A stretch of 53,188 nucleotides of DNA from Candidatus Fervidifonticultor quintus (GTDB taxonomy: Bacteria; Sysuimicrobiota; Sysuimicrobiia; Sysuimicrobiales; Humicultoraceae). How positions within the stretch are numbered: position 1 is the stretch's first letter; every line of letters begins with the position of its first letter. A program made the translations under genes and the position numbers. The stretch lies in the NCBI GenBank assembly GCA_031459535.1, contig JAVKIJ010000010.1, forward strand, positions 1 to 53,188, written 5' to 3'. Positions 6,098-31,559 of the stretch are shown in pieces. Below the pieces are notes generated by a model. It searched no databases and was not told the origin of the DNA. It saw only the letters and a list, made by a program, of their open reading frames with translations.

Positions 6098-7135
6098 ATG
6101 CAGGCGGCCGTTCTGGACGCTCCGCGCGCGCTCAGCATCCGGGACGTAGGAATGCCAGACCTGCCCGACGGAGCCGTGCTCGTCCGCGTGGAGCTGGCCG
6201 GCGTCTGCGGCAGCGACCTCAAGCTGTGGCGGTTCGGATCGCCCCGGCTGCGGTTGCCGGCGGTGATCGGGCACGAAGTCGTCGGCCGGGTGGAGGCGGC
6301 ACCGGCCGCCTGCCGCCACCTGCGCGGGCAGCGGGTGGTGACGATCATCGACGTGCCGTGCTTCCAGTGCCCCGCCTGTCGCCAGGCACGCTACAACCTC
6401 TGTGATCAGGGCCGCGCCATCGGGTGGGAAGTGCCGGGAGGCTTCGCCGAGTTCCTGGCCATCCCCAGCGAGACCGTCGCGGCCGGCGGCGTGCTCACCG
6501 TCCCGGAGGGGTTGCGCGCCGAAGAAGCGGTCCTGGCCGAGCCGGTTGGGTGCGCGGTGCGGGGTCAGGAGGCCGCGGGCGTCGGGCCCGAAGACACCGT
6601 GCTGGTCATCGGCGCCGGGCCGATGGGCTACCTGCACGCCTGCCTGAGCCGACTACGCGGCGCGCGCCGGGTCATCCTCTGCGATCTGCTCGCCCGCCGG
6701 CTCCAGCAGACCGCCGAGGCGCCGGTAGACGCGCGTCTGGTGGTGGGCGACGGGTTCGAGCGTATCGTGCGCGACCTGACAGAGGCGCGGGGCGGCCCGG
6801 ACGTGGTCATCGTCGCGGCCGCCACTGCCTCGGCCCAGGATCTAGCGGTCAGGCTGGCCGCCAAGCGCGGCCGGGTCAACTTCTACGCCAGCCTGCCCGC
6901 CGGTGAAGCCGGCCGGTTCGACATCAATCCCATTCACAACCGTGAGCTCCGCGTGGTCGCCACCCGCAATGCGACCATAGGCGCCATGCAGGCCGCGCTC
7001 GGCCTGCTGGCCGCGGGGCGGCTGCCCACCGCGCCGCTCGTGGCGGCGGTCGAGCCGTTTGCTCACCTGCCCGATCTGTTCGCACGGTTCGATGACGCGC
7101 AGATCCTCAAACCCATCGTGGCCGTGACCCGGTGA
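6098..7135 (+). CDS. Zn-dependent polyol/alcohol dehydrogenase (MDR family)
   Basis: GVCGSD, GHE, structural Zn CFQCPAC...C, GAGPMG Rossmann motif. Confidence 0.9.
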   Translation: MQAAVLDAPRALSIRDVGMPDLPDGAVLVRVELAGVCGSDLKLWRFGSPRLRLPAVIGHEVVGRVEAAPAACRHLRGQRVVTIIDVPCFQCPACRQARYNLCDQGRAIGWEVPGGFAEFLAIPSETVAAGGVLTVPEGLRAEEAVLAEPVGCAVRGQEAAGVGPEDTVLVIGAGPMGYLHACLSRLRGARRVILCDLLARRLQQTAEAPVDARLVVGDGFERIVRDLTEARGGPDVVIVAAATASAQDLAVRLAAKRGRVNFYASLPAGEAGRFDINPIHNRELRVVATRNATIGAMQAALGLLAAGRLPTAPLVAAVEPFAHLPDLFARFDDAQILKPIVAVTR

Positions 7136-7145
7136 TGCGCCGGCA

Positions 7146-8681
7146 ATGACCCCCAGGCCCTGCCCCCCGTACCTGCTCGGCCTCGACGTGGGAACCACGG
7201 GCGCCAAGACCGTGCTGGTCGACGCCCGCGGCCGCGTCCTGGCGACACAGACGGTCACCTATCCGCTGCTCGTGCCTCGCCCCGGCTGGACCGAGCAGGA
7301 CCCCGCCACGTGGTGGGATGCAGCCTGCGCCAGTATCCGCGCCGTGCTGGAACGGTCGGGAGTGTCGGCGGCGTCTGTGGCGGCGGTAGGCCTGACCGGA
7401 CAGATGCATGGCCTCGTGGCGCTGGACCGCCGCGGGGAAGTGCTGCGGCCGGCCATCCTGTGGAACGACCAGCGCACCGCCAGCGAGTGCGCGTGGATCA
7501 CTCGACAGGTCGGTGCCGACCGCGTGCTGGCGCTGACGGGCAACCCGGTGCTCACCGGCTTCACCGCCCCGAAGATCGTCTGGATGCGGCGCCACGAACC
7601 CGAACTCGCCGCCCGCATCGCGCACATCCTCCTGCCCAAAGACCACGTCCGCTACCGGCTGAGCGGCCTGTTCGTCTCAGACGTCGCCGACGCGTCCGGC
7701 ACCTCGCTGTTCGATGTGAGGGCGCGAAGATGGTCCGCTGAGATGCTGGCCGCCCTCGACATTCCCTCGCCGTGGCTGCCCGAGGTGGTGGAGTCGCCGA
7801 CGGTGACAGGTACCGTGACCGCTGATGCCGCACGGGCTACGGGTCTGGCGCCGGGCACGGCCGTGGTGGCCGGCGCGGGCGACCAGGCGGCCCAGGCCGT
7901 GGGTACCGGCGTTGTCGAACCCGGCATCATTTCGGTGACCATCGGGACCTCCGGCGTGGTGTTCGCGCATCTGGACACCGTGCAGGTTGATGCGCTCGGC
8001 CGGACCCACACGTTCTGCCATGCGGTGCCCGGTCGCTGGCACGTCATGGGGGTCATGCTGTCCGCGGGTGGGTCGCTGCGCTGGCTGCGGGATGCGCTGG
8101 GCGACGCGGCCTGGGATGTCTGTGGCGCGGATCCGTACGACCTGATGGCGGCCGAGGCGGAGCGCATCCCGCCCGGCTCCGAGGGTCTCCTGTTCCTGCC
8201 GTATCTGACCGGCGAGCGGACGCCGCACGCCGATCCCCACGCGCGGGGCGCCTTCGTGGGGCTGACCTTGCGCCACGGCCGGGGCCACCTGGTCCGCGCG
8301 GTGATGGAAGGTGTCGCCATGGGGCTGCGTGATGCCCTGGAGATCATCCGCGGTATGGGTGTACCGGTCAACCAGGTACGCGCCTCCGGAGGCGGCGCGC
8401 GCAGTCCGCTGTGGCGTCAGATCCTGGCCGATGTCTTCGACTCAGAGCTGGTGACGGTGACGACCACCGAAGGGGCGGCCTACGGCGCCGCGCTGCTGGC
8501 CGGCGTGGGCAGCGGGTGCTTCGACACCGTGGAGTCCGCGTGCAGGCAGGCGGTCGGCATCAGTGAGCGGACGTCGCCGCAGCCCGCGCATGTCCGGCGC
8601 TATCAGGAGCTCTACGAGCGGTACGGGACGCTCTACCCGCAGTTGCGGCCGGTCTTCCAGAGTCTGACGGCGATCGACTAG
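7146..8681 (+). CDS. xylB: FGGY-family sugar kinase, xylulokinase-like
   Basis: LGLDVGTTGAK, TGQMHG, ILWNDQR, GAGDQAA, FLPYLTGERTP, SGGGARS. Confidence 0.88.
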   Translation: MTPRPCPPYLLGLDVGTTGAKTVLVDARGRVLATQTVTYPLLVPRPGWTEQDPATWWDAACASIRAVLERSGVSAASVAAVGLTGQMHGLVALDRRGEVLRPAILWNDQRTASECAWITRQVGADRVLALTGNPVLTGFTAPKIVWMRRHEPELAARIAHILLPKDHVRYRLSGLFVSDVADASGTSLFDVRARRWSAEMLAALDIPSPWLPEVVESPTVTGTVTADAARATGLAPGTAVVAGAGDQAAQAVGTGVVEPGIISVTIGTSGVVFAHLDTVQVDALGRTHTFCHAVPGRWHVMGVMLSAGGSLRWLRDALGDAAWDVCGADPYDLMAAEAERIPPGSEGLLFLPYLTGERTPHADPHARGAFVGLTLRHGRGHLVRAVMEGVAMGLRDALEIIRGMGVPVNQVRASGGGARSPLWRQILADVFDSELVTVTTTEGAAYGAALLAGVGSGCFDTVESACRQAVGISERTSPQPAHVRRYQELYERYGTLYPQLRPVFQSLTAID

Positions 8682-9444: not shown

Positions 9445-11802
9445 TTAACGGTTCACCGGGGCATCGGGCGGGTGACCGTCCGTCACCGTGATGGTTCGCG
9501 ACGCGCGGGCGCCGTTGAGGCCGAGCGCGGAGACCGCGATGAGGTATTGCGTCCCCACGGCGCGGTAGGCCGGGCGGAACTCGTAGACAAAGCGGCCCTC
9601 GGCATCGGTCTGCATCGCCACCTCCGCCACCCTGGCCCCACCGCCGACACCGCCCGCAGTCACCACAATGGTAACCATGGCGCCCACGGCTGAGGTGCCC
9701 TGGATGACAAACGGCGGCGCCAGGTACGCACCGCTGGCGGGGGTGAGGATAGTCAGCGGGAGTTCCTCGGACGCCGCTGGACCCTGCGCCGCTGCCGGGA
9801 GGGCGTACTGAGTGGGCGCCGAAGCGCGGGTGAACACCTCCCGCCGGGGATCGGGGCAATCGCGCGTCGCGAGCTGCCAGCTGCCCGCGCACACCGTGGC
9901 CACCACCACGCCCTCGGGCGGCGTCCAGTCTTCGGGGGGATCGGAGGCCGTGGCGACCTTCATGAAGGACGCCCAGATGCGCGCCGGGATCATGCCGCCC
10001 GTGACGCGGTTCATGGGGCTGTTGTCGTCGTTGCCCACCCAGACCGCCGCCGATAGGCGCGGTGTGTACCCGATGAACCAGGCGTTGCGGTAGTCGTCGG
10101 TGGTGCCGGTCTTGCCGGCCGCGGGCTTGCCGATGTTGGCCGCGGTCCCGGTGCCGTGCCTGATGACCCCCTTCAAGATATCGGTCATCACGTAGGCCAC
10201 ATCGGCGGGGATGCCCACCTGCCGGTGCGGCCGGTGGTCCTCCAGCACCTTCCCTCGAGCATCGACAACCTTGACGACGGACAGCGGCCTCACCCGCAAC
10301 CCGCCGTTGGCCAGCGTCGCAAACGCCGTCGCCATCTCCAGCGGGGTCACATCGGCCGAGCCCAGGGCCAGCGACAGGTGCGGAGCCAGCGGGCTCTCGA
10401 TGCCCATCGCCCGGGCCGTCTCCGCCACCTTCTGCGGGCCCAGTTCATAGGTCATGCGGGCCGCGGGTACGTTGATCGACCGCTCGACTGCCCGCCGCAG
10501 CGTTACTGGTCCGGAGAACTTCCCGTCATAGTTCTTCGGCGACCAGTCCCGCGCGCCGGCGATGCGGTAGGTCACCGGTGAATCGTCGAGGATACGCGTC
10601 GGCGGGATGCCCTCGGCGATCGCCGTGGTGTACACGAACACCTTGAACGCCGAACCAGGCTGGCGGCGAGCCTGCCAGGCGCGGTTGAACTGGCTGGCGG
10701 CGAAGTCCACTCCGCCGATCATGGCGCGAATGGCGCCGGTGCGGGGATCGACGGCCACCAGCGCTCCCTGCTCGATCTTCAGCCTGGCGCGACGGGCGGC
10801 GGCGATGCCGTCTCGCACCGCGCGCTCCGCCGCGGCCTGCATACCGGGGTCTAGCGTGGTGTAGATCTGCAATCCGCCCTTGTAGACCAGGTCCTCGCCG
10901 AAGCGCTCGAGCAACCGTGGCAGGATATGTGAGACGAAGTACGGTGCCCTGATCCCGGCCAGTCCCGCGTTGGTCGCGGGCGCCAGCGTGATCCTGGCCG
11001 CGCGGGCTCTGGCGGCCTCCTCGGTGCTGATGTAACCCGAGGCGGCCATCCGGGCCAGCACGATCTCCTGCTGCTGCTTCGCCCGGGCGAAGCTCCGGTA
11101 CGGCGAGTAGACCGAGGGCGCCCGGATCAACCCGGCCAGCAACGCCGCTTCAGACAGCGTCACGTCCCTGACCGACTTCCCGAAGTAGACGCGCGCGGCC
11201 ATTTCCACACCGTAGGCGCCCTGGCCGAAGTAGACCTGGTTGAGGTAGCGCTCGAGGATCTCTTCCTTGGTCAGCCGGCGCTCGATCTCAAGCGCCAGGA
11301 ACACCTCGGCCAGTTTGCGGCTGACGGTCCGCTCCTGGGTGAGGAACAGGTTGCGCGCGAGCTGCTGGGTGATCGTGCTGCCCCCCTCCACCACCTCGCC
11401 TTCGCGCACGTTGCGCCACAGGGCACGGATGATCCCGCGCGGATCCACCCCTCGATGGGCGTAGAACCGCTCGTCCTCCATGGCCAGCACGGCCTGCCGC
11501 ATGACGGGCGGGATCTCGGTGAGCGGCACGAGCTGCCGGTTCTCTCGGAAGAGGGACGCAATGAGCTCTCCGTTGGCCGCGTAGATGCGGGTTGCCTGGC
11601 TGGGCGGCTCGTAGAGCCGCGAGACGTCCCGCACCTGGGCCCCGATGGCCACCGCGGCGCCGACGGCCAGGCCGCCGGCCAGCAGCACGAGGACGGCCAG
11701 CAGCAGCAACGCCCACAATGCGCCTCTCCACGACAGCCGCCCGCGTCGGAGGCGGCGGGCCTGGAACTTCCGGGTGGCAGACGATACGCGCCTGGGCGAC
11801 AT
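9445..11802 (-). CDS. Class A penicillin-binding protein (PBP1A family)
   Basis: TM anchor, EDERFYAHRG, GGSTITQQLARN, RQPGSAFK (SxxK), SIN, KTGT. Confidence 0.93.
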   Translation of the reverse strand: MSPRRVSSATRKFQARRLRRGRLSWRGALWALLLLAVLVLLAGGLAVGAAVAIGAQVRDVSRLYEPPSQATRIYAANGELIASLFRENRQLVPLTEIPPVMRQAVLAMEDERFYAHRGVDPRGIIRALWRNVREGEVVEGGSTITQQLARNLFLTQERTVSRKLAEVFLALEIERRLTKEEILERYLNQVYFGQGAYGVEMAARVYFGKSVRDVTLSEAALLAGLIRAPSVYSPYRSFARAKQQQEIVLARMAASGYISTEEAARARAARITLAPATNAGLAGIRAPYFVSHILPRLLERFGEDLVYKGGLQIYTTLDPGMQAAAERAVRDGIAAARRARLKIEQGALVAVDPRTGAIRAMIGGVDFAASQFNRAWQARRQPGSAFKVFVYTTAIAEGIPPTRILDDSPVTYRIAGARDWSPKNYDGKFSGPVTLRRAVERSINVPAARMTYELGPQKVAETARAMGIESPLAPHLSLALGSADVTPLEMATAFATLANGGLRVRPLSVVKVVDARGKVLEDHRPHRQVGIPADVAYVMTDILKGVIRHGTGTAANIGKPAAGKTGTTDDYRNAWFIGYTPRLSAAVWVGNDDNSPMNRVTGGMIPARIWASFMKVATASDPPEDWTPPEGVVVATVCAGSWQLATRDCPDPRREVFTRASAPTQYALPAAAQGPAASEELPLTILTPASGAYLAPPFVIQGTSAVGAMVTIVVTAGGVGGGARVAEVAMQTDAEGRFVYEFRPAYRAVGTQYLIAVSALGLNGARASRTITVTDGHPPDAPVNR

Positions 11803-21046: not shown

Positions 21047-22255
21047 TCACCTACCCGGGCGCCCTGACCCCATGTGAGGCGGGCGGCCGGGTGGCAGCCG
21101 CGCAGCCAGCGCCGCGGTAGCGAAGAGCACCGCCGCAGCACCCCCGAACGCCGCGCCCTCTGAGACGAACCCCAGCAGGCCATTGCCCCACACCGGTCCG
21201 ATCGCGCGCCCCAGGCCTTCGAGCGCGCTGCTGACACCCTGGATCCGGCCCTGTTCGTCGGGCGGGACCGCCTGACTGATCAGGCTGGTCAGCGACGGAA
21301 TGGCCAGCGCCACACCGACGGCTCCCAGCACCACGGCAACCGCGAACAACGCCACATGACGCGATGCGGCGGCCAGCGCCAGGCCCAGCGCCGCCAGCGT
21401 GAGGCCACCGGCCAATGTTCTCCGCTCGCCGAACCGTCGCACCACCGGCCCGACCACCGCCAGCTGCATCACCACGCCGACGCCCCCCACAAAGGCCAGC
21501 ACATATCCGGTATCTGAGACGTCGAACCCGAAGCGCCTGGCACCGAAGAGGGCAAACGTGGTTTGGTAGGCCGCGAACGTGACCCAGTAGAGGAAGTCGA
21601 TGACCAGCAAGCGGCCGAGCAACGGACGCCGCAGCATGCCAGGGAGCGCCGCCCAGGCCCGGCCCCGGGCCGCTCGGGCGCGGTGGACCGTTTCCGGTAG
21701 CCACCGCCACGCCAGGGCCGTGGCGGCCAGTGCGATGAGGGCTGCGCCCCAGGCTGGCGCGCTATAGCCCAGATGGCTGAGCGCGCCGCCCAGGCCCGGC
21801 CCGACGATGAAGCCGAGGCCGAAGGCCGCGCCGATGAGGCCATAGCCCCTGGCCCGATTCTCAACGGTAGTCACGTCGCCGATGTAGGCGCGGGCGGTCG
21901 AAATGTTGCCGCCGGAAAGGCCGTCAATGATCCGCGCGGCGAACACCGCAGGCACCGACCGGGCCAGCGCAAGCACAACGAAGCTGACCACCGTGCCGCA
22001 CAGGCTGAAGATGAGCACCGGCCGCCGGCCGTAGCGGTCAGAGAGGTCGCCGAGGATAGGCGCGGCGAGCAGCTGGGCCACCGAGAATGACGCAAAGATC
22101 AAGCCCACCTCGAACGGGGACGCTCCCAGCCCTGTGGCGAAGAACGGCAGCAGGGGAATGACGATGCCGAACCCCACCAGGTTGACAAGCACGATGAGGA
22201 AGATGACGAGCAGCGGGCGGTCGGTCACTCCCGCTGCCCCAGCGGAGCGAGTCAC
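21047..22255 (-). CDS. MFS transporter, TetA/DHA1-like
   Basis: GFGIVIPLLP, GDLSDRYGRRPVL, RIIDGLSGG, GAAFGLGFIVGPGLGG. Confidence 0.9.
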   Translation of the reverse strand: MTRSAGAAGVTDRPLLVIFLIVLVNLVGFGIVIPLLPFFATGLGASPFEVGLIFASFSVAQLLAAPILGDLSDRYGRRPVLIFSLCGTVVSFVVLALARSVPAVFAARIIDGLSGGNISTARAYIGDVTTVENRARGYGLIGAAFGLGFIVGPGLGGALSHLGYSAPAWGAALIALAATALAWRWLPETVHRARAARGRAWAALPGMLRRPLLGRLLVIDFLYWVTFAAYQTTFALFGARRFGFDVSDTGYVLAFVGGVGVVMQLAVVGPVVRRFGERRTLAGGLTLAALGLALAAASRHVALFAVAVVLGAVGVALAIPSLTSLISQAVPPDEQGRIQGVSSALEGLGRAIGPVWGNGLLGFVSEGAAFGGAAAVLFATAALAARLPPGRPPHMGSGRPGR

Positions 22256-22444
22256 CCCACTACTCTAGCCCCGGCGCCCCCCGCCCGTCCACTGCCGAAG
22301 CAGAATCAATACCGGTCCCCGTGCGCACCTGTTCGCGGACCGGGGGCGGATTAGTGTCACAGTGCCGGACAGGAGAGGAATAGTGACCGTAGTTACCGAA
22401 CGCGCCCTCTCGGAGCCCCCAAAACCACACAAGGGAGGATCGTC

Positions 22445-22579
22445 ATGAAGAGCGCGCTTCGCGTCGTCGTATTGGCGCTTGTTGCCCTGCTGTTGGTCAC
22501 CGCGTCGGTGCCCGTGACCCTCGGTCCGGGAACCGCGAGCGTCCAGGTCGCCGACACCGACGGCCCGGATGGCGGCTAG
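22445..22579 (+). CDS. Small secreted propeptide (44 aa), candidate Phr/PapR-like signalling peptide precursor
   Basis: Not in the ORF track. Strong RBS AAGGGAGG; MKSALRVVVLALVALLLVTASVPVTLGPGTASVQVADTDGPDGG = basic N-terminus, hydrophobic core, short acidic Gly/Pro tail; adjacent to an HTH-TPR gene. Confidence 0.8.
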   Translation: MKSALRVVVLALVALLLVTASVPVTLGPGTASVQVADTDGPDGG

Positions 22580-22684
22580 AAGCTCCCCGGGCCGGCTGAC
22601 GATCGAGAAACCCTAGTTGAGCGGAGCGGAGGAGGGGGATGCCGGGGCGTCCAAGCAGGTGCCGAGCCGGGGGCTCCTGTCCGG

Positions 22685-22713
22685 TTGCTTACAGCGGCGC
22701 CCCGCGGTAGTAT
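22685..22713 (+). promoter_or_regulatory. sigma70-type promoter of the HTH-TPR regulator (near-leaderless)
   Basis: TTGCTT-17 bp-TAGTAT, 10 nt before ATG 22724; no SD. Confidence 0.55.
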
Positions 22714-22723
22714 TGTCATTACT

Positions 22724-24100
22724 ATGGCTAAACCCTCCTCTGCATCCACTCGATCGCTCTCGCGTGTGCGGCAGCCGGAGTGGCTGCGCCAGTTCGCCAG
22801 GCGCCTCAAAGGGGCGCGCGTCCAGGCCGGGCTCACGCAGCAGCAGCTGGCCCAACCCGAGTTCAACAAGAGCTTCGTGAGCCTGCTGGAGACGGCGCGA
22901 TCGTATCCGTCGGTGGAGACCCTCCTGGCGCTGGCGAGGCGGACGCGCACCTCGCTCGCGTCTCTCCTCTTCGATCCGGCGGACCTGCGTCTGGAGACCG
23001 CCCTCAATCTTCTCCATCTCTGCTGGGTCATGGACCCCGCGCGGCACGGTCCCGAGATCCTCCAGTTCGTGAGCACCGCAGAGGTTCTCGTGCCCGACAT
23101 GCCTGCTGAGCTGCGGGTGCGGGCGATGCTCGCCCGCAGCCGTGCAGCCGTGGCGGCCGGACGACTGGACGAGGCAGAGAGCTTGGCCTCAGACGCCGTC
23201 GAGCTGGCCCGCCGCCACCAGCTTGAGGGCGCGCTCGGTCGCGCGCTCGCGATCAAGGGGACCGTCGAGGGGCGCCGGGGACTCTACCCCGCTGCCATCG
23301 CCACACTCGAGCGGGCCCTGGACTGCCTCCATCGGACGAGGTCCCTCGAGTCCGAAGACGGAGTGCGGGCGCTGCTCTCTCTGGCCTGGGCCCGCTGGCG
23401 CACCGGCCAGATCGGCGACGCCCAGGCCGCGTATCAGCGGGCCCTCGAGGTAGCCACCGCGGTCGGGCTGCCCAAGTTGCGCGGCCGCGCGCTCGTGGGG
23501 CTGGGCATCGTGGCGTGGAGGCGGGAACAGTTCGATCTGGCGGTAGAATACTTCAGCCAGGCGTACGCTGTCTTCCAAGAGATCGAAGACCTGGCGGAAA
23601 TGGGACGGGTCCTCAACAACCTGGGGCAGGTTCGCCGCACGCAGGGGCTCCACGACGAAGCCCTCGCCGTGCTCACCACCGCCCTGCGCATCCGGGAGCG
23701 CGAGGGCGATCCTCGAGGCCGCAGCGCCACGCTCGACGAGTTGGCCCAGGTTCTCCTCGCGCTGGGCCGGGTCGATGAAGCGGCCCAGGCAGCCCGTCGC
23801 GCCGTTGACGACGCACGAACCGTGGGAGACCAGGCCCGGGAAGCGATCGTTCAGATCACCCTGGCCCGCATTCTGCGCGCACAAGACCGACGGCCAGACG
23901 CCGTCGAGCTGCTGCGCGGCGCGGCGGAGACGCTTGGCCGTCTGGGGATGACCGCAGAGGCAGCGGCAGCGGCAGCGGAGCTAGGGTTGATGCTCAACGA
24001 AGCCGGCCAACGGGAGGAGGCCGCGGACTACCTGGCCAGGGCCCTGACCTGGCGCACAGGCCACATACCCGCACCATCGCCAGACCACATCGACGGGTAG
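22724..24100 (+). CDS. XRE HTH + TPR regulator (RRNPP-like peptide receptor)
   Basis: N-terminal LKGARVQAGLTQQQLA...KSFVSLLE...PSVETLLALA HTH followed by tandem TPR repeats (e.g. VLNNLGQV); 458 aa. Confidence 0.85.
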   Translation: MAKPSSASTRSLSRVRQPEWLRQFARRLKGARVQAGLTQQQLAQPEFNKSFVSLLETARSYPSVETLLALARRTRTSLASLLFDPADLRLETALNLLHLCWVMDPARHGPEILQFVSTAEVLVPDMPAELRVRAMLARSRAAVAAGRLDEAESLASDAVELARRHQLEGALGRALAIKGTVEGRRGLYPAAIATLERALDCLHRTRSLESEDGVRALLSLAWARWRTGQIGDAQAAYQRALEVATAVGLPKLRGRALVGLGIVAWRREQFDLAVEYFSQAYAVFQEIEDLAEMGRVLNNLGQVRRTQGLHDEALAVLTTALRIREREGDPRGRSATLDELAQVLLALGRVDEAAQAARRAVDDARTVGDQAREAIVQITLARILRAQDRRPDAVELLRGAAETLGRLGMTAEAAAAAAELGLMLNEAGQREEAADYLARALTWRTGHIPAPSPDHIDG

Positions 24101-24211
24101 CCTGCGCCCGGTCGCGGCACGGCGCCGGCGGCCCCCGCCCCAAGAGGAAGCCACTCCAAGAGCGCAGAATTCCGCACCCAATATTGTGCCGATAGGACAC
24201 GGAGGAGTCTC

Positions 24212-25780
24212 ATGATGCCGCGTCATCGGGGATCGTTGCTCGCCACCGCGCTGCTGGTTGCCGCGCTCGCTGCCTGCTCGCTTCCCGCCGGACCGTCAGC
24301 TGCTGCGCCGGCGCCGCGGTCTGGAGGCGTCTTGCGCTACGGGCTCGACACCGATCCTCCCAACATCGACCCGCACGTGGCGACCGGTGCCGCCAGCCGT
24401 AGCGTCATCTTCCAGCTCTACAACTCCCTGCTGCGCTACGGACCGGGCGCCTCGTTGTTGCCGGACCTGGCCGAGCGCTGGGAGGTGCCGAACCCGAAGA
24501 CGTACGTCTTTCATCTGCGCAGGGGCGTGCGGTTCCACAATGGCGCGCCGCTTGTGGCCGCCGATGTCAAGGCATCGTTTGAGCGGATAGCCAACCCGAA
24601 GACCAACGCCCTGATCCGCGACTCGCTGACACCCAACATCGCTGGCATCGAGATCGTCGGGAGCCACACGGTCAGGATCACCCTGACCGAGCCGCAGGCC
24701 ACGTTCCTGGCCCTGGTGGCCCGACCTGAGGCGGCCATCGTGCCGAAGGCGCTGGCCGAAGCCAACCACGACTTCAAGTCCAACCCGGTCGGTACCGGGC
24801 CTTTCATGTACGCCGAGCGGGAGCCGGGCGCGCGCATCCGGGTGGTGAAGAATCCCAACTACTTCGAGAGGGGCATCCCCTATCTGGACGGCATCACGTT
24901 CATCCCGCTGCGCGATGACGCGACCCGCGTCAATGCCCTGCGGTCCGGGGCCGTGGACATGATTGGCTACGTGCCGTGGAAGGACATGGCCCTGATCGAG
25001 CGGGACCCCCGGTTACAGCTGTGGGGCACCCCGGGGCCGTTCATGGTCCTGATGTACAACGTGAGCCGGAAGCCGTTCGACGATCGGCGCATCCGGCAGG
25101 CCATCGGGTACGCCATCAACCGGCAGGCCATCGTGGATGTGGTGTTCTTCGGCCGCGGCGCGCCCATCACCGGCGGGTTGATTCCGGCTGGCACGTGGGC
25201 GCACAACGCCGACCTGGAGGGCACGTACAAGTACGATCCCGAGCGCGCCAAGAAACTGCTGGCCGAGGCCGGCTACGATCCCTCGACGCCGGTGCGCCTG
25301 ATGCAGTCCGCGACCCACGCCATGCACTATCAGACCGGCGAGGTGGTGCAGGCCGAGCTGCGCAAGATCGGGATGAACGTGGTGCTGGACAGCGTCGAGT
25401 GGCCGGTGGCTGTGGAGCGCGGATTCAAGGGCGACTACGACTTCCGTGTGCACGGCCTGGCGGGCAACGTCATCGATCCCGACTTCTACTCCCAGTACTT
25501 CGCCAACCAGTCCGCGTTCTACGCCAAGCCCGTTGGCTTCCGCAATGACACGCTGGACCGTCTGCTCAAAGAAGGCCGCGCGTCCATCGACCAGGCGCAG
25601 CGGAAGCGCATCTACCACCAGTTCGAGGAGCGGCTGCTCACCATCGCGCCGTGGACGTTCCTTACCTGGCGCGTACAGGGCGACGCGGCCGTGAAGGCGG
25701 TCCAGGGGTACCAGCAGCTCCCTGGGTGGATGGCGTTCGACTCTCTGGTCTTCCTGCGGTACGTCTGGCTGGAACGCTAG
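24212..25780 (+). CDS. ABC transporter substrate-binding protein, family 5 (peptide/nickel)
   Basis: Signal peptide; PDLAERWE...YVFHLRRGVRFHNG, PVGTGPF, PFDDRRIRQAIGYAINR. Confidence 0.92.
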   Translation: MMPRHRGSLLATALLVAALAACSLPAGPSAAAPAPRSGGVLRYGLDTDPPNIDPHVATGAASRSVIFQLYNSLLRYGPGASLLPDLAERWEVPNPKTYVFHLRRGVRFHNGAPLVAADVKASFERIANPKTNALIRDSLTPNIAGIEIVGSHTVRITLTEPQATFLALVARPEAAIVPKALAEANHDFKSNPVGTGPFMYAEREPGARIRVVKNPNYFERGIPYLDGITFIPLRDDATRVNALRSGAVDMIGYVPWKDMALIERDPRLQLWGTPGPFMVLMYNVSRKPFDDRRIRQAIGYAINRQAIVDVVFFGRGAPITGGLIPAGTWAHNADLEGTYKYDPERAKKLLAEAGYDPSTPVRLMQSATHAMHYQTGEVVQAELRKIGMNVVLDSVEWPVAVERGFKGDYDFRVHGLAGNVIDPDFYSQYFANQSAFYAKPVGFRNDTLDRLLKEGRASIDQAQRKRIYHQFEERLLTIAPWTFLTWRVQGDAAVKAVQGYQQLPGWMAFDSLVFLRYVWLER

Positions 25781-25801
25781 CAGTGCACCGTTAGCACCGT
25801 A

Positions 25802-26749
25802 TTGAGAACGTTTCTCGCCAGGCGCCTGCTCTCTTCCTTGGCGCTGCTGTACGTGGTCGCCACGATCATCTTTTTCTTGATCCACCTAGTGCCGGGAGAC
25901 CCGGCGCTGACCATCGTCGGCGAGGAGCATGCCACGCCCGAGAAGCTGGCCGTGGTGCGGGCGGCGCTGGGTCTCGACCGGCCCCTCTATGTCCAATACG
26001 CCACATGGCTGGCGCGCGTGGTCCGCGGGGACCTGGGTCGGTCCCTGGTGACTGCTCGGCCGGTCCACCAGGACCTGGGCCTGCGGCTGCCGCGCACGTT
26101 CGAACTGATTGCTGCTGCTGTGGCTCTGGCGGTCCTGATCGGCGTCCCCCTCGGCGTGGTGGCGGCGCGGTACCACAACTCGTCTCTCGACATGGGCGCG
26201 TCGGTGCTGGCGCTGGTGGGCGTCTCGGCGCCTGTCTTCGTCACGGGCACCCTGCTGGTGCTCGCGCTCAGCGTCCACTGGCGCCTGCTCCCGTCCTCTG
26301 GCTGGATGTCGTTTGCCGCCGACCCCGCCGGGCACGTGGCCCGCCTGCTGATGCCAGCCGTGGTGCTCTCGTTCGGCATGAGTGCGGTCATCATGCGCAT
26401 GACGCGCTCATCTCTGCTGGAGGTCATCCTCCAGGACTTCATCCGGACGGCGCGGGCCAAGGGGCTGGCCGAGCGGCGCGTGCTGTTCCGCCACGCGCTG
26501 AAGAACTCCCTGATCCCGGTCGTCACCGTCATCGGCGTGCAGATGGGCAACCTCCTGGGCGGCAGCGTCATCGTCGAAGAGGTGTTCGCCTGGCCGGGCG
26601 TGAGCACATACCTGATCACGGGGGTGAGCCAGCGGGACTACCCTGTGGTGCAGGGGGTGGTGCTCGTGATCTGTCTCGCGTTCGTGCTGATCAACCTGGG
26701 GGTGGACCTGCTGTACGGTTTCCTGGACCCCCGGATCAAGTACCAGTGA
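25802..26749 (+). CDS. Peptide ABC transporter permease (DppB/OppB-like)
   Basis: LVPGDPA, GLDRPLYVQY, DFIRTARAKGL, RDYPVVQG, DPRI. Confidence 0.92.
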   Translation: MRTFLARRLLSSLALLYVVATIIFFLIHLVPGDPALTIVGEEHATPEKLAVVRAALGLDRPLYVQYATWLARVVRGDLGRSLVTARPVHQDLGLRLPRTFELIAAAVALAVLIGVPLGVVAARYHNSSLDMGASVLALVGVSAPVFVTGTLLVLALSVHWRLLPSSGWMSFAADPAGHVARLLMPAVVLSFGMSAVIMRMTRSSLLEVILQDFIRTARAKGLAERRVLFRHALKNSLIPVVTVIGVQMGNLLGGSVIVEEVFAWPGVSTYLITGVSQRDYPVVQGVVLVICLAFVLINLGVDLLYGFLDPRIKYQ

Positions 26750-26758
26750 GGCAGCGGC

Positions 26759-27601
26759 ATGGGTCGAGCCTGGCGAAACCCCCGCATCACCCTCAGCGCC
26801 GGCTTCATTCTGCTGGTGGCAGCCGCGGGCGCGCTGGCCGGGGTGGTGGCGCCCCATCCGCCCCTGGAGATGCATCCGTCAGACCGGCTCCAGGCTCCGT
26901 CGAGCCGCTACCCGTTCGGCACCGATGAGTTCGGCCGGGACGTCCTTTCACGCCTCCTCCACGGCACGCGGATCTCCCTGCTCGTGGCCTTCGTGGCCGT
27001 GTCGCTGGCCGCCGTCAATGGCACGGTGATCGGCGTCCTGGCAGCGTACTACCGCGGGTGGGTCGAGATGGTCCTCATGCGCACCGTCGAGGTGATCCTC
27101 AGTTTCCCGCCCGTGTTGCTGGCCATCGCCGTGATCGCGTTCCTGGGCGCGTCCACCCGCAATGTGACTCTGACCATTGCCGTGCTCTACACGCCACTCT
27201 TCGCCCGCATCGCGTACGGGAGCAGCCTGCGCGTCCGCGAGATGGAGTTCGTGGAGGCGGCACGGGCCATGGGCGCAGGAGACCCCCGCATCATCGGGCG
27301 GACTCTCCTACCGAACATCCTGGCGCCGCTGATGGTGCAGTTCTCGCTCAGCCTGGGATTCGCCATCCTCCTTGAGTCAGGGCTCAGCTTCCTGGGCATG
27401 GGCCCCCCGCCGCCAGCGCCGTCGTGGGGGCGGATGGTGTCGTCAGGGCGGCACTTCATGGAGATCTCGCCGTCACTGGTCGTCTTCCCATCCCTGGTCA
27501 TCCTCGGGACCGTGCTCTCGTTCAACCTACTGGGCGACGGGCTGCGCGACCACCTGGATCCCCGGCTGAGAGTCGGTGGCGGCCGAAGGGAGAGCGTGTA
27601 G
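26759..27601 (+). CDS. Peptide ABC transporter permease (DppC/OppC-like)
   Basis: PFGTDEFGRDVLSR, EFVEAARAMGA, LSFLG, FNLLGDGLRDHLDPR. Confidence 0.92.
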   Translation: MGRAWRNPRITLSAGFILLVAAAGALAGVVAPHPPLEMHPSDRLQAPSSRYPFGTDEFGRDVLSRLLHGTRISLLVAFVAVSLAAVNGTVIGVLAAYYRGWVEMVLMRTVEVILSFPPVLLAIAVIAFLGASTRNVTLTIAVLYTPLFARIAYGSSLRVREMEFVEAARAMGAGDPRIIGRTLLPNILAPLMVQFSLSLGFAILLESGLSFLGMGPPPPAPSWGRMVSSGRHFMEISPSLVVFPSLVILGTVLSFNLLGDGLRDHLDPRLRVGGGRRESV

Positions 27602-27603
27602 AG

Positions 27604-28341
27604 ATGCCCGCATACGTGATTGCCGAGATGTCGTGGACCGACGTGGCGGCCGCTGCCCGCATCACGGACCTCTGCCTGCTGCCCGTGGGCGCGGTCGAAG
27701 CCTACGGCCCCCACCTCCCGCAGGGGTCTGACGGGCTGGTGGCCGAGCGTCTGGCGCGGGAGGCCGCGGACGTGGTCTCGTGCCTGGTCGCGCCGCTGGT
27801 GCCCGTGGGGTTCTCCCACAGCCTGCAGGAGTTCCCGGGCACGCTCAGTGTGCCCACGGCCGCGCTCCGCGCCTACCTGGCCGGCATCGCCGAATCCCTG
27901 CTCGCGCTGGGCGTGCGCCGTCTGGTCTTCGTGAACGGTCACGCCGGCAATGTGGCGGTCATTGCCGACCTGGTCGAAGACCTCAAGCGCGGCCACCCGG
28001 GCTGCCGGTTCGCGCAGGTCGACCTCTGGCGGTTTCTCATCCCGCATGCGGCGACGCTGATGGAGAGCGTGCTGCCGCAGGGTCACGCGGCGGAGACCAA
28101 CACCAGCGTGCTGCTGGCGCTGGCGCCGCACCTGGTCCGCATGGAACGCGCGGTGAGCAACCCGCCGGAAGCGGACCGGTTCCCCGAGATCCTCCACTAT
28201 CGCAGCTACCGGGATCGCGCGCCAGACGCCGTGCTCGGCGACGCCACCCGGGGCACGGCCGAGAAGGGACGGGAAGTGATGCGCCGGGGGGTGGCGCGGC
28301 TGGTGGAGTTCCTCCGCAGCCCGGACTTCGGCGGGCGGTAG
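27604..28341 (+). CDS. Creatininase/MftE-family amidohydrolase
   Basis: LPVGAVEAYGPHLPQGSD, FPGT, VNGHAGN, GHAAETNTS. Confidence 0.87.
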   Translation: MPAYVIAEMSWTDVAAAARITDLCLLPVGAVEAYGPHLPQGSDGLVAERLAREAADVVSCLVAPLVPVGFSHSLQEFPGTLSVPTAALRAYLAGIAESLLALGVRRLVFVNGHAGNVAVIADLVEDLKRGHPGCRFAQVDLWRFLIPHAATLMESVLPQGHAAETNTSVLLALAPHLVRMERAVSNPPEADRFPEILHYRSYRDRAPDAVLGDATRGTAEKGREVMRRGVARLVEFLRSPDFGGR

Positions 28342-28385: not shown

Positions 28386-29936
28386 CTACCGGCCCAACCA
28401 CGCGTTCCAGAACACATGATGATGAGGAAAGGTGTATCCCTGCAGCTCCGGCCGGCGCACGTGAAGTGGGAAGAAGTCGCCGAATTTCACCGAGCCCGCA
28501 GCCTCATACCATGTGGCCTGGGCCCGCTGCCAAATGGCGCTGCGCACGCTGGGCCGGCCGTGACGTCGCAGCAGGGTTAGCATCGCACGCATGTCGGGGT
28601 GATCAAACCAGCCGGGCCATGTGGGCTGGAGCTCCACGAGGAATGTCGGGTCTGGCACAAAGCCGCCCTGGGCGCTGAAGACATCCCATAGTTCGGGGCG
28701 GACCCTCCGCTGGACAAGAGTGGCCCAATCGGTGAACTGCAGCTCAATGGTGAATCCGGCTCGCTCCAGGGCGGGCTTCGCGATCTGCGCGGATATCCCC
28801 AGGTGGGGAAACTCCATCGTCGTCAACCATCGGATGGGCTCGCCCCGGTACCCGGCCTCGGCGAGCAGGCGTTGCGCTCGCGCCGGGTCGTTCCGGTTGT
28901 AGTGCTCCTTGCCGGCCTCGGTCCACATGGGCGTTCCCTTTGGCATCAGGCTGGGTTCGAGCCTCCAGAACCCCTCACTGCCGAACGTCCCCTGCAGGAT
29001 CGCGCGATAGTCCAAAGCGGTTTGAAACGCCTTACGGATCTTGGTCTCGGCCATGGGTCCGCGCCGGTTGTTCAAGATGGCGTACAGCCGCCAGGGCACG
29101 GTACCGGGTATAGCGACGACCCCGCGATGGTGTTGAAGCCTGCTCTGTTCGTCCGTGGGAATGTTCTCGGCAAACTCATAGTCTCCACGCTGCACACCCG
29201 CTACGCGCACGGCGGCATCGGGGACCGGAAGGAAGTAGATCCGGTCGAAAAACGCCCTCTTGCGTCCGGTGGCGCCATCCGGCGCCTCCACGCGTGACTG
29301 ATAGCCTTCGAAGCGGTCCAATCGGATGTGCCGGTCCGGGAGATGTTCGACAAAGCGGTAGGGCCCCGTCCCTATGAAACGCTTGATCATGCCGCCAGCG
29401 GCCTCGTCTACGACTTCCTTTGGGAAGATCACCGCGGCCTGGGTGGGAAACGCGAGCTGCTCGACCAGCAGCCCGTACGGTTCGCGCAGCTTTACCTCGA
29501 TTGTGTACCGATCCACCGCCACCACGGCCGTCACGTTGGCGAACATGATCTGGCCAAAGCTGGCGACACGCCCCCACCGCTCCAGCGAGGCGACCACGTC
29601 CTCGCTGGTCAGCTCCTTCCCGCTGTGAAACCTGACACCCTGCCGAAGGCCGATGCGGTAGAGGCGGCGGTCCGCGGCGATGAACCACCGGTCGGCGAGC
29701 ATGGGCCTCGGTGCCAGATCGCCATTCAGGGCGAACAATCCCTCGGTGACATGATGCATGATATTCCCGACAATATGCGCGGTGGTCCAGTGCTGATCGA
29801 GCGTCGGTGGCTCCCCAATGAGGGCCACCCGAAGCACGCCGCCGTGCTGCGCCTCCTGCGCTGGGGCCGGCGGCACGGCCGTCAGCAGGACAGCCAGCAG
29901 CAGGACCCTGAGGACGGGGTCTGATCGGCTCCGCAT
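28386..29936 (-). CDS. Orphan ABC substrate-binding protein, family 5
   Basis: GGVLRVALIGEPPTLD, LRQGVRFHSG, IGTGPYRF. Confidence 0.88.
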   Translation of the reverse strand: MRSRSDPVLRVLLLAVLLTAVPPAPAQEAQHGGVLRVALIGEPPTLDQHWTTAHIVGNIMHHVTEGLFALNGDLAPRPMLADRWFIAADRRLYRIGLRQGVRFHSGKELTSEDVVASLERWGRVASFGQIMFANVTAVVAVDRYTIEVKLREPYGLLVEQLAFPTQAAVIFPKEVVDEAAGGMIKRFIGTGPYRFVEHLPDRHIRLDRFEGYQSRVEAPDGATGRKRAFFDRIYFLPVPDAAVRVAGVQRGDYEFAENIPTDEQSRLQHHRGVVAIPGTVPWRLYAILNNRRGPMAETKIRKAFQTALDYRAILQGTFGSEGFWRLEPSLMPKGTPMWTEAGKEHYNRNDPARAQRLLAEAGYRGEPIRWLTTMEFPHLGISAQIAKPALERAGFTIELQFTDWATLVQRRVRPELWDVFSAQGGFVPDPTFLVELQPTWPGWFDHPDMRAMLTLLRRHGRPSVRSAIWQRAQATWYEAAGSVKFGDFFPLHVRRPELQGYTFPHHHVFWNAWLGR

Positions 29937-29942
29937 CGTCTC

Positions 29943-31559
29943 CTATCCTCTGCCGGATCGCGCGCTCGTGGACCTGACATGGAGAATCTTGCCGGCGGCC
30001 GTGGCGCGCGGGCGCTCGCGCCGGATTTCCAGCCAGCCGCCGTGCCGCCAGTAGACCTGTGCCACCCGCTCGGCATCGCCGATCCTCGCCAGTGCGGCCA
30101 GGAACGTGTCGATGACGTCACGTTCGGCGAGCGGGCCTACGGCGGGATCCACCGCGAGCACAAGACGGGGCTGGCCCTCAGATCCTTCCTCCTCGATCAG
30201 TTGATAGTCGGATGGTCCGCCACCGAAGCGGGTTGGCAGCTCTGCGTCCAGCACCGCAGCCACGTCAGCGTCAAGAAACGTCACACCTCCGGCCGTGAGT
30301 TTCTCCGAACTCCTGACGCCCGACAGGTGTCGTCTCCAGCCTATCCGGGAGAGCGGGCAATCACACGCCCGTTCGAACAGCGTCCCCTGATCTCCCAGTG
30401 AGGCATTGACAAGGAGCATCGGGGCCGTCGGGCGCAGTGTGGTGACCAACAGAGTCCTGGGCTGCAGCTTGGCCACGAGATCACTTTGACCCGGCTGGAT
30501 CAAGGCCACCAGGTCGTCCAGGACGTGCATATCATCCGCGGCCTGCGGGTTCAGGCAACTCAACGCGATCGCGTATGTCTCGGCTGTACCGTAGACCGTC
30601 GTCACCCGGCCGCCGGCTTGACGGATCACCGAGGCGCGCGCCTCGGTGAGAGGCTCCCCGCTCACGGTGAATTGGGCCCCGCTCAAGTCCAGGCCCGCCG
30701 CCGCTGCCGCGCGGCAGAGCCGCAGGGTCGCACTGGGGAAACTCCACAGGTGCGGTACCTCACCTCGATCCAGGCAGGCGGCCATCCAGCGAGCCACAGG
30801 AAGCGGATCCTCGATGGACGCCGGCGCCGGCTTTGGCAGCTCCACGCCAGCCAGGAGTCCGCCGAGCTGAAGCACCCGCTCGACCCACCGGTACCGGCCG
30901 GGCAATCTGGCGATCCTCGGATCGATCTGCGTGAACCACCGGGCGACGGGCAATCCCGCGCCTGCATGCCACAGGATCCACGCGAGAGGCATGCCCCCGG
31001 GTACCGTCCAGATGGCGTGCCGCCACCCGAGCCCACCGCGAGCCTCATATTCGACCAGCTGATCTGCCGCGCGGTCGATGAGAAAGTCCAGCACCACAGG
31101 AACGGTTGTCCGCGGCCCGCGGCTACCTCCGGTGTAGAGGCGCAGGTCGCCGCCGACGAGCGGGTTACGGAGCTCTTGGGGCCTGAGGTCGAAGCTGGCA
31201 CTCCCTCGACGCACGGCGACCCGTCCCTTCATCTCATCCACCGTGAGGTACACGCCGCGCATGTACAAGGTCGCCAACGCGGCGTCCAACCCTTCCGACC
31301 TCACCAGACGCTCGAGATCACCATACGTACAACCCGCGATCGAGAACAGTCGGGCGTACGGTCGCTCGGGCCGGGCGAAGATGCCGTCGCGCGCCATAAC
31401 CAGAAACAGCTCGCCGCGCTGTGCAAGTCGCTGGCTCACCGACGCCCTGGCCTCCTCGAGGCGAATGGGGTGCCGAAGCCACCGCGGTAACCGCCACAGC
31501 AAGCGCGCGCCGAGGCGCGCGTCATCAAAGAGTTGAACCGCCCTGCCGAGCGGGCTCAC
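29943..31559 (-). CDS. Hypothetical protein, PaaK/phenylacetate-CoA-ligase-like adenylate-forming fold
   Basis: TGGSRG P-loop-like motif, SGEPLT, VYGTAE, GD..G, CDC, TAAGKI C-terminus. Confidence 0.6.
   Translation of the reverse strand: MSPLGRAVQLFDDARLGARLLWRLPRWLRHPIRLEEARASVSQRLAQRGELFLVMARDGIFARPERPYARLFSIAGCTYGDLERLVRSEGLDAALATLYMRGVYLTVDEMKGRVAVRRGSASFDLRPQELRNPLVGGDLRLYTGGSRGPRTTVPVVLDFLIDRAADQLVEYEARGGLGWRHAIWTVPGGMPLAWILWHAGAGLPVARWFTQIDPRIARLPGRYRWVERVLQLGGLLAGVELPKPAPASIEDPLPVARWMAACLDRGEVPHLWSFPSATLRLCRAAAAAGLDLSGAQFTVSGEPLTEARASVIRQAGGRVTTVYGTAETYAIALSCLNPQAADDMHVLDDLVALIQPGQSDLVAKLQPRTLLVTTLRPTAPMLLVNASLGDQGTLFERACDCPLSRIGWRRHLSGVRSSEKLTAGGVTFLDADVAAVLDAELPTRFGGGPSDYQLIEEEGSEGQPRLVLAVDPAVGPLAERDVIDTFLAALARIGDAERVAQVYWRHGGWLEIRRERPRATAAGKILHVRSTSARSGRG

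Follow-up and report, generated by a model that had tools for sequence, protein, structure and literature searches.

The 44-codon open reading frame upstream of an HTH-TPR regulator gene in Candidatus Fervidifonticultor quintus is, on comparative evidence, a real, selected gene. On balance, the two genes probably form a cassette for peptide signalling in the manner of the RRNPP systems, in a lineage outside the Firmicutes. The window is the whole stretch of DNA that was analysed (53,188 nt), and the features discussed here are collected in Table 1. An earlier note on this DNA had proposed an RRNPP-like quorum-sensing cassette. The conserved pair of micro-ORF and HTH-TPR gene, the C-terminal unit of the peptide and the diderm host of that proposal gained support, and the importer and modifying enzyme did not.

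Table 1. Positions in the window of the cassette, its intergenic elements and the genes downstream.
Feature	Position	Strand	Basis
Motif ATTAGTGTCACAGTG, upstream of peptide gene	22350-22364	+	15-locus alignment
Motif GGAATAGTGACCGTAGTTACCGAAC, related to ATTAGTGTCACAGTG, upstream of peptide gene	22377-22401	+	15-locus alignment
5' arm GGAGCCCCC of long-range helix enclosing peptide ORF	22412-22420	+	Reverse complement at 22669-22677
Shine-Dalgarno AGGGAGGA, 5 nt ahead of peptide ATG	22432-22439	+	
Propeptide gene, 44 codons plus stop	22445-22579	+	ORF, sequence MKSALRVVVLALVALLLVTASVPVTLGPGTASVQVADTDGPDGG; orthologue comparison
Basic N-terminus (MKSALR) and uncharged hydrophobic core, residues 1-22	22445-22510	+	
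Predicted mature unit ADTDGPDGG, residues 36-44, propeptide C-terminus	22550-22576	+	Alignment columns Q-x-A-[D/G]-x-D-x-P-x-G-G; repeat units of other clades
Local 8-bp stem CGGCCCGG/CCGGGCCG spanning peptide stop codon, no T-run after it	22561-22594	+	
3' arm GGGGGCTCC of enclosing helix, just 5' of regulator -35	22669-22677	+	
Predicted regulator promoter: -35 TTGCTT (22685-22690), 17-nt spacer, -10 TAGTAT (22708-22713)	22685-22713	+	Orthologue alignment only
Regulator, 458 aa, XRE-HTH and TPR, no signal peptide	22724-24100	+	Pfam, AF2 model
XRE-type HTH, about aa 19-82	22778-22969	+	
TPR array, about 9 repeats, about aa 85-447	22976-24064	+	
SBP_bac_5, lipoprotein-type	24212-25780	+	E 7e-96
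BPD_transp_1 permease, first	25802-26749	+	
BPD_transp_1 permease, second	26759-27601	+	
Creatininase-family hydrolase	27604-28341	+	E 2e-61

The reading frame and ribosome-binding site that the earlier note had described are present in the sequence, and orthologous peptide ORFs are likewise preceded by GGAGG-type sites. Comparison of eight independent orthologue pairs gave 42 synonymous versus 29 non-synonymous codon differences in the peptide ORF, with 19, 10 and 49 differences at codon positions 1, 2 and 3, respectively. This substitution pattern supports translation in the given frame and points to a conserved gene under coding selection.

Of 101 distinct regulator copies, 58, spread over 47 of 59 genomes, have a signal-peptide-like micro-ORF upstream in the same orientation, at a distance of 24-250 nt from the regulator (median 121.5 nt). 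The same detector passed 17 of 3000 random windows of the genome to which the window belongs. Metagenome contigs gave a similar picture, a micro-ORF preceding the regulator at 30 of 59 copies. With a tightened version of an initial filter (ORF of 38-65 aa ending 40-180 nt ahead of the gene), 6 of the 1397 ORFs of at least 400 aa in the same genome had a qualifying upstream ORF, and a P..G tail was present in only two of the six, the window ORF and its paralogue on contig C50. That initial filter overlooked ORFs that have an alternative start further upstream or lie less than 30 nt from the regulator, and it passed two false positives, L030 and L108; the count of 58 of 101 comes from the rule set that superseded it. 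No peptide was detected at 43 of the 101 regulator copies, among them L071, the closest orthologue of the window regulator. On a tree of 99 regulators, peptide presence changes 14 times versus a shuffled mean of 32, and none of 500 shuffles was as low. Tail types follow the regulator clades on this tree, and two or three cassettes with different tails occur within single genomes. The genome of the window carries a second, diverged cassette on C50 with the tail ADPDWPGGG and a peptide-less regulator paralogue on C79, an arrangement that fits orthogonal channels plus an orphan receptor. These locus comparisons identify the micro-ORF as a conserved gene physically tied to the HTH-TPR regulator.

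Twenty-six propeptides contain 2-4 exact copies of a C-terminal unit of 7-14 residues. For RRNPPA systems, the available text of PMC11343458 describes propeptides in which the pheromone is duplicated in tandem. The copies differ only at silent sites in 25 of the 26 repeat propeptides (115 of 798 nt), and the unit varies between lineages and is constant within each propeptide. Duplicates kept identical in protein despite silent changes point to the C-terminal unit as the probable functional product, and the repeats offer a sequence-only route to reading the presumed mature signal. Across the alignments, the short C-terminal unit emerges as the part under strongest selection, diversifying along with the regulator clades. 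The window clade has no internal repeat, and the boundary of its unit was inferred from the alignment and the repeat-bearing clades, in which the unit starts A-[D/G]-x-[D/G]. The earlier note had divided the tail between SVQVA and DTDGPDGG and expected a mature signal of 5-8 residues from the second part. A short C-terminal unit is supported by the tandem duplicates; the cut falls one residue off the aligned unit start, so the window unit is likely the 9-mer ADTDGPDGG or part of it. By arithmetic, the mass of ADTDGPDGG is roughly 0.8 kDa.

That the peptide ORF is a chance open frame or a mere leader ORF of the regulator is barely credible. The ORF is short and no RNA cover of it was obtained, but it recurs far over background, its differences are biased to the third codon position and the units of repeat-bearing propeptides stay identical despite silent changes; moreover, the regulator has its own promoter, as predicted from the orthologue alignment. 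The chance reading is refuted as far as the comparative data reach. In a hot-spring metatranscriptome, an RNA-library contig is identical (0 differences) to the regulator at 23032-23402, where DNA carry-over is possible. The same run contained no contig over 22324-22890, which is uninformative either way for the peptide gene.

The export signal was judged by composition rules only, namely a basic N-terminus and an uncharged hydrophobic core, and this segment suggests Sec export or membrane insertion of the propeptide. The uncharged hydrophobic stretch of the window propeptide is long (~16 residues), and in many propeptides a proline directly follows the small residues that close the core. Proline at that exact spot is ill-suited to signal peptidase I. 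Both features would suit an uncleaved, single-pass membrane micro-protein, N-terminus in and tail out, that holds or releases the regulator like an anti-regulator. Such an anchor would expose only 4-6 residues to the cytoplasm, the site of the regulator, and the positive-inside rule puts the tail, which is the selected part, outside. Tandem tail units separated by spacers suit a precursor cut into pieces and not an anchor, and a membrane-held anti-regulator is considered quite improbable.

A GGA[AT]T[AC] anchor lies 55-86 nt ahead of the peptide ATG in 16 of the 20 loci examined, and the motif block at 22350-22401 is a candidate promoter or operator region of the peptide gene. The helix enclosing the peptide ORF is kept in orthologues through compensatory and G-U-compatible changes and is seen in both MFE and centroid folds. 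Folded as a whole, the RNA of the region does not exceed shuffles in stability (z 0.61 and -0.11), the closing helix alone being notable, and nothing in Rfam matched within 22150-24300. A TTGCC-17-TG(G/C)TAnnnT block is kept in 15 orthologous spacers and coincides with the predicted regulator promoter; a stricter sigma-70 consensus scan found no promoter-like site, and the single terminator-like site lies on the minus strand. The regulator ATG is located 10 nt after the -10 without a Shine-Dalgarno sequence, so the regulator mRNA is probably leaderless or nearly so. A separate promoter and a probably leaderless mRNA would allow the receptor to be made independently of the signal.

The window regulator matches TPR_12 (E 7.7e-33) and, under the Pfam cut-off, HTH_3 (E 0.0067). 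All 30 aligned members of the family match HTH_3 (best E 4.3e-8), and an RstR-like HTH match covers aa 23-91 (E 2e-4). An AF2 model of the regulator (pLDDT 92.6, pTM 0.82) was compared with known structures. Its TPR domain superposes over nearly the whole length of RapI (4i1a_B, Z 29.3, rmsd 4.5, 353 of 359 residues) and of apo NprR (5dbk_B against model residues 87-445, Z 28.6, rmsd 4.8, 346 of 352 residues) in VIA-align comparisons, which also gave Z 28.2 for Rap-CSF (4gyo). Foldseek also matched the PlcR-PapR-DNA complex (3u3w_A; E 3.8e-7, TM 0.58 on target). The top fold match is eukaryotic LGN (Z 31.2), which indicates that the TPR fold alone is generic, and the modelled match to Rap and NprR is taken as likeness and not as evidence of common descent. 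In a PDB profile search Rap proteins appeared at E 5e-8, behind many generic TPR proteins. The Pfam, NCBIfam and PDB-profile matches of the regulator include no RRNPP-specific sequence family; in NCBIfam the regulator had no match over any cut-off and the peptide no match at all.

Co-folding of the TPR domain with propeptide residues 15-44 gave a score of 0.45 (runs of 0.48, 0.02 and 0.45) versus 0.02 for the best control, which weakly supports binding. The runs share at least 15% of contacts, the partner pLDDT is at least 31, and one run of three failed. Of 80 solved complexes, 58 reach the mark used, as do 2 of 110 mismatched pairs; with scores of 0.60 or below, only 7 of the 80 do so, along with both passing mismatches. 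The input alignments were custom-made, and likeness to solved Rap/NprR-peptide complexes may help the score.

The weak co-fold, together with the 43 regulators that have no adjacent peptide, would also fit an exported peptide with an extracellular or periplasmic job of its own, such as metal binding or action on other cells, the HTH-TPR protein controlling its expression and sensing something else. D, G, H and E abound in the units (for example AGHGDGELLNGGW), and beside the C50 cassette lie genes for NikR, for CbiM and for a truncated ATPase of DppD type. The neighbours of the other cassettes are unrelated to metals. Tails that track regulator clades, with two or three differing cassettes per genome, are what matched pairs of signal and receptor should show and not what a single generic chemistry would lead one to expect, and the TPR domain spans the entire peptide-binding domain of Rap and NprR. 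A separate job for the peptide is accordingly unlikely, and a signal read by the adjacent receptor is preferred.

Downstream of the regulator lie genes for a family-5 SBP, DppB/C-like permeases and a creatininase-family hydrolase, as the earlier note described. It had also tentatively assigned them to the cassette as its own importer and peptide-modifying enzyme, and comparison of the loci did not support this assignment. Related ABC genes are found in the neighbourhood of just two of the other 51 regulator copies (L011, where a permease gene is on the opposite strand; L059, SBP plus permeases) and a creatininase gene in that of none, many loci having flanks of only ~1.5 kb. The genes downstream of the cassette vary by lineage (Memo and GGDEF, nitroreductase, hybrid kinase, GlnRS, aldehyde and alcohol dehydrogenases), and the operon at 24212-28341 contains no ABC ATPase gene. 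It is very unlikely, then, that 22374-28341 is one system in which peptide import is the dedicated role of the SBP and permeases, and modification or trimming that of the creatininase-family enzyme, although the genes are adjacent on the same strand in the window, a DppD-like ATPase remnant lies beside the C50 paralogue and the creatininase homologue comes closest to the peptidyl-dipeptidase MftE, below cut-off (E 1.7e-33, 116 bits versus 172). On these neighbourhood comparisons the operon is outside the conserved cassette and may be a local target. The same genome contains SBP_bac_5 systems and a DppD/F-type ATPase pair on C76.

Gene content places the host lineage among LPS-type diderms that lack Spo0A. 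LpxC is present in 86 of 94 genomes of the phylum, Omp85 was found in the genome of the window and Spo0A (Spo0A_C) in 0 of the 94, in agreement with the apparently diderm, non-Firmicute host of the earlier note. An exported peptide would first reach the periplasm of such a host and must cross the outer membrane twice for cell-to-cell signalling. No relative of the regulator was detected in viral contigs. A contig scan with the single regulator protein returned only three generic TPR matches, in genomes with partial TPR matches only. Two further phyla were searched with five candidates scored per genome. In the phylum of genome G094 (locus L040, labelled Anaerolineales), 3 of 301 genomes had a full-length match (E<=1e-35), and no upstream signal-like ORF was seen by eye at the 4 loci of those genomes. 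In the phylum of genome G095 (locus L041, labelled Actinomycetota), 0 of 301 genomes matched. The cassette was thus not found in these two phyla as searched, which does not imply its absence.

The proposed mechanism begins with Sec, which would insert or export the propeptide through its N-terminal basic and hydrophobic segment. Proteases would then free the C-terminal unit of about 9 residues (~ADTDGPDGG), which would build up outside the cytoplasm and return through an oligopeptide ABC importer, which need not be the one next door. Inside the cell, the unit would bind the cytoplasmic TPR domain on its concave face and switch DNA binding by the N-terminal XRE-HTH, and the conserved sites ahead of the peptide gene could provide autoregulation. 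The wider proposition is evenly poised: re-imported peptide pheromones with cytoplasmic HTH-TPR receptors might not be confined to Firmicutes and might extend through a whole LPS-diderm candidate phylum, with as many as three or more orthogonal channels in a genome, polyprotein-like multi-copy precursors and a small mRNA closed by a conserved 5'-3' helix. If true, RRNPP-like signalling would have an outer membrane to cope with, and the question arises whether a ~0.8 kDa peptide crosses it or serves as a self-signal limited to the periplasm. A cassette of this kind in an uncultured LPS-diderm phylum would widen the known range of peptide signalling with cytoplasmic receptors. The putative ligand-receptor pairs are testable, the peptides being short and, as far as the genes show, unmodified, and the receptors soluble; two natural paralogous pairs in one genome supply specificity controls.

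The available text of large surveys frames peptide quorum sensing through cytoplasmic receptors as Gram-positive (Bacillota) (PMC10075063, PMC9765709, 10.1101/2023.09.19.558401). Within the literature searched, no paper was found to link RRNPP systems to diderms or to Chloroflexota, Actinomycetota or Armatimonadota, and PMC11604079 has zero occurrences of "quorum", "tetratricopeptide", "lipopolysaccharide" and "outer membrane".

Among known systems, NprR-NprX of the Bacillus cereus group resembles the cassette in combining about nine TPRs and an N-terminal XRE-type HTH in a single protein, and in having an adjacent small gene for a peptide with an export signal, here predicted. The active part of NprX lies near its C-terminus. 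The cassette differs from NprR-NprX in that the peptide gene is upstream instead of downstream, the host lacks Spo0A and is an LPS diderm, the units of 7-14 residues are acidic or glycine-rich, and the sequence-family link is to generic TPR and HTH only. Rap-Phr systems of Bacillus, phages and plasmids share the length and shape of the TPR domain and a Sec-type propeptide with the signal at its C-terminal end, again predicted here. Rap proteins have a 3-helix N-terminal domain, in place of which the regulator has an HTH, and act on proteins rather than DNA; phr is downstream of rap. PlcR-PapR and AimR-AimP likewise pair an HTH-TPR receptor with an adjoining secreted propeptide (export predicted here), but PlcR and AimR are shorter or differently built than the regulator, and their peptide genes are downstream of the receptor. 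The host falls outside the range of RRNPP(A) systems in the literature (Bacillota, their phages and plasmids), a criterion of range and not of mechanism. What the cassette has in common with that class is a TPR superhelix sensor of the Rap/NprR/PlcR kind, an N-terminal HTH and an adjacent small propeptide gene.

The gene order described in the earlier note (a 44-codon ORF with its ribosome-binding site, a TPR regulator, a solute-binding protein, permeases and a creatininase) was correct as written, and the spacer between the propeptide ORF and the regulator gene is 144 nt. No ABC ATPase gene is present in the operon of peptide-type transporter and creatininase genes. For the creatininase-family gene, the last in this operon, the nearest relative is MftE, the mycofactocin peptidase, with a score under the cut-off. 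A second SBP_bac_5 gene (28386-29936) is convergent and adjoins a 538-aa ORF (29943-31559, - strand) that has no Pfam family and resembles AMP-dependent ligases only faintly (E 1e-4).

Features of the propeptide-regulator cassette and its surroundings (window coordinates unless a contig is named)
Feature	Position	Strand	Basis or remark
Candidate operator pair, two related GGAAT-anchored motifs about 30 nt apart	22350-22401	+	Conserved 55-86 nt before the peptide ATG, second copy further up
Putative long-range helix around the peptide ORF, GGAGCCCCC / GGGGGCTCC	22412-22420 / 22669-22677	+	Conserved inverted repeat, alignment of 15 loci
Shine-Dalgarno sequence AGGGAGGA	5 nt 5' of propeptide ATG	+	Window sequence
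Propeptide ORF, 44 codons, MKSALRVVVLALVALLLVTASVPVTLGPGTASVQVADTDGPDGG	22445-22579	+	Window sequence
Predicted regulator promoter	22685-22724	+	Conserved TTGCC / 17 nt / TG-TAnnnT block ending about 10 nt before the ATG
Regulator, 458 aa	22724-24100	+	Strong TPR matches, weak HTH_3 match
SBP_bac_5 lipoprotein-type binding protein, two permeases, creatininase-family hydrolase	24212-28341	+	3' of the regulator
Putative helix arms of the C50 paralogue (L076), CGTGAGAGCCCTC / GAGGGCTCTCACG	Contig C50, about 7209-7221 and 7429-7441		

The regulator family was collected by searching the window protein against 61 related genomes and a profile against all 94 available genomes of the phylum, which represent one order and seven families. 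The phylum search gave about 165 matches, of which 101 distinct regulator copies were examined for an upstream ORF. A rule-based detector scanned the 500 nt 5' of each copy for a same-strand ORF of 25-95 aa whose end lay 10-260 nt 5' of the regulator, with a basic N-terminus, an uncharged hydrophobic window and a tail of which at least half was G/P/D/E/N/S/H. The detector was positive at 58 of the 101 copies and in 47 of 59 genomes versus 17 of 3000 random windows of the window's own genome (G000), which bears out the expectation that such micro-ORFs lie next to homologous regulators. Leaving out the two copies, both positive, of the unpublished genomes G013 and G022 gives 56/99. An earlier, slightly different filter agrees; among 1397 long ORFs of G000 it found the right place, length and tail at the two true cases only. 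In metagenomes, where 80 contigs encode relatives, the ORF was present at 30 of the 59 distinct copies whose upstream DNA was long enough. Eight independent close-orthologue pairs of the propeptide ORF show 42 synonymous versus 29 non-synonymous codon differences, distributed 19/10/49 over codon positions 1/2/3. On this comparative sequence evidence the 44-codon ORF is translated as a gene, and the pair that it forms with the regulator gene is both real and conserved.

The C-terminal unit of the propeptide, its predicted signal stretch, is present two to four times with short spacers in 26 propeptides (for example AGDIGPGQNG x2, APELPGEN x2, GHGDIEALGGWA x2 and AGHGDGELLNGG x3), and the stop codon always directly follows the last copy. 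In 25 of the 26 the copies are the same in protein and different in DNA (115/798 nt), so the duplications are old and the identity of the copies has been kept by selection. Strong selection acts on this short C-terminal unit. It varies from lineage to lineage and copies inside one propeptide share one version, as would be expected if a single matured product were matched to a single partner. In the window's clade the unit occurs once, with the alignment pattern Q-x-A-[D/G]-x-D-x-P-x-G-G, which places the window unit at about ADTDGPDGG. The cut before DTDGPDGG suggested in the earlier note lies one residue inside the start predicted here. In genus g4 of the same family, the propeptides (L117-L120) have a 13-14-aa unit of the AGHGDGELLNGGW type repeated in tandem, with three or four copies each, and stop just 24-26 nt 5' of the regulator; these are the most polyprotein-like form seen.

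Sequence searches with the regulator gave links to generic TPR and HTH proteins only, and all 30 aligned members of the family contain HTH_3. Arg residues R138, R185, R203 and R331 of the regulator are conserved. The AF2 model (pLDDT 92.6, pTM 0.82) has a five-helix N-terminal domain followed by 18 paired helices. Its best fold match by Foldseek and VIA-align is eukaryotic LGN (Z 31.2), and RRNPP receptors rank directly after it with near full-length coverage: RapI (Z 29.3, 353/359 residues), apo NprR (Z 28.6, 346/352 residues, model residues 87-445), Rap with CSF (Z 28.2), phage Rap with pheromones (Z 27.6-27.8) and NprR-NprX (Z 25.1). The superposition on these receptors gives the regulator the same architecture as NprR, a likeness of architecture and not evidence of common descent. 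The TPR domain was co-folded with propeptide residues 15-44 in three runs with three controls, using analyst-made alignments. The co-fold score was 0.45 (runs 0.48, 0.02 and 0.45) versus 0.02 for the best control. Of 80 solved complexes, 58 reached that mark, as did 2 of 110 mismatched pairs; at 0.60 or under it was attained by just 7 of the 80 solved complexes and by both passing mismatches. The runs share at least 15% of contacts with a partner pLDDT of at least 31. The co-fold weakly supports the predicted pairing of TPR domain and propeptide; part of the score may come from resemblance to solved Rap/NprR-peptide complexes.

G000 (3.1 Mb, 138 contigs, 89% complete) holds three full regulator paralogues and a fourth copy broken by a contig end. 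Upstream of the C50 paralogue stands a related 43-codon ORF (E 5.8e-5) of the same build with another tail, ...QQADPDWPGGG. At this cassette a DppD-like ATPase gene lies directly 5' and NikR and CbiM genes lie 3' (6333-7106 and 9450-10910); the oligo_HPY domain of the ATPase is shortened, with 33/65 positions matched, and runs into a TAG. These surroundings may be what is left of a nickel or peptide transporter locus after rearrangement. The paralogue on contig C79 (L003/L077), which lies divergent to a small TrpR/YerC-like gene, lacks a peptide ORF upstream, as do its orthologues in the window's genus. Whole regulator clades have no detected peptide, including the C79 type and one copy in most genomes of family f2, and these look like orphan receptors. 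At the closest orthologue of the window regulator (L071/L014 in genome G003, 68% identity) a peptide ORF was undetectable in the 500 nt upstream, which suggests recent loss or replacement. In a tree of 99 regulators, copies with a peptide occur to either side of the midpoint root. Tail types track clades (A-D-x-D-x-P-x-G-G; S-G-P-G-E-x-P-D-G-G; A-G-D-x-G-P-G-x-N-G; G-H-G-D-...; G-D-D-x-x-G-S-H). Peptide presence requires 14 changes on the tree versus a shuffled mean of 32 (0 of 500 shuffles as low), a test that shows clustering only, because related copies are not independent.

Regulatory features were read from the alignment of 15 orthologous loci. The regulator ATG has no Shine-Dalgarno sequence, a pattern kept in the 15 spacers, and the promoter block ends close to this ATG; the alignment suggests that the regulator has its own -35/-10 promoter and an mRNA with little or no leader, predicted to start at 22724. 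Both motifs upstream of the peptide co-vary among orthologues (for example AGCAATTACAG / AGCAATTATAA elsewhere) and form a candidate operator pair for autoregulation. The arms of the inverted repeat change jointly across loci, and the GC-rich arms of other clades are unrelated. The one-sided changes observed are G-U compatible on the + strand. For the perfect helix, 26 of 56 loci had at most 5 of 100 shuffles reaching the observed one. Both G000 cassettes have the helix in their MFE and centroid folds, and the overall fold energy is ordinary. The jointly changing arms could be paired protein-binding sites, a possible but less simple reading; on the simplest reading, the inverted repeat acts in the peptide transcript as RNA, a helix that closes a small mRNA from 5' to 3', with a predicted 3' end at about 22677.

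The dedicated importer and peptide-modifying enzyme that the earlier note considered possible are not supported by the comparison of loci. ABC genes related to those of the window occur near only 2 of 51 other regulator copies (L011, on the opposite strand, and L059) and a creatininase near none of the 51, many of these loci having only 1.5-kb flanks. A DppD/F-type ATPase pair of G000 is located elsewhere, on contig C76. Genes 3' of the cassette vary by lineage and encode Memo-like and CBS-GGDEF proteins, a nitroreductase, a hybrid histidine kinase, GlnRS, a cyclase-NB-ARC-TPR protein, aldehyde and alcohol dehydrogenases or a pterin-binding enzyme. The conserved module therefore consists of two genes only, and the adjacent transporter may be a local target of the cassette.

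LpxC occurs in 86 of the phylum's 94 genomes (51 of 54 of good quality), contig C55 of G000 carries Omp85 and LpxC, and Spo0A_C was found in none of the 94; this supports the diderm, non-Firmicute host that had been assumed. A contig from a hot-spring metatranscriptome RNA library, which may contain DNA, matches the regulator gene at window positions 23032-23402 with no difference. We consider RRNPP-like peptide signalling the most likely mechanism of the cassette, with somewhat better than even confidence; the signal would be exported and cleaved, pass the outer membrane, be taken up and bind the receptor. A search outside supplements for literature joining RRNPP with other phyla or diderms found nothing relevant. 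PMC10075063 and PMC9765709 assign RRNPP/RRNPPA systems to Bacillota and their mobile elements, and a preprint (10.1101/2023.09.19.558401) and PMC12998947 likewise place RRNPP systems there.
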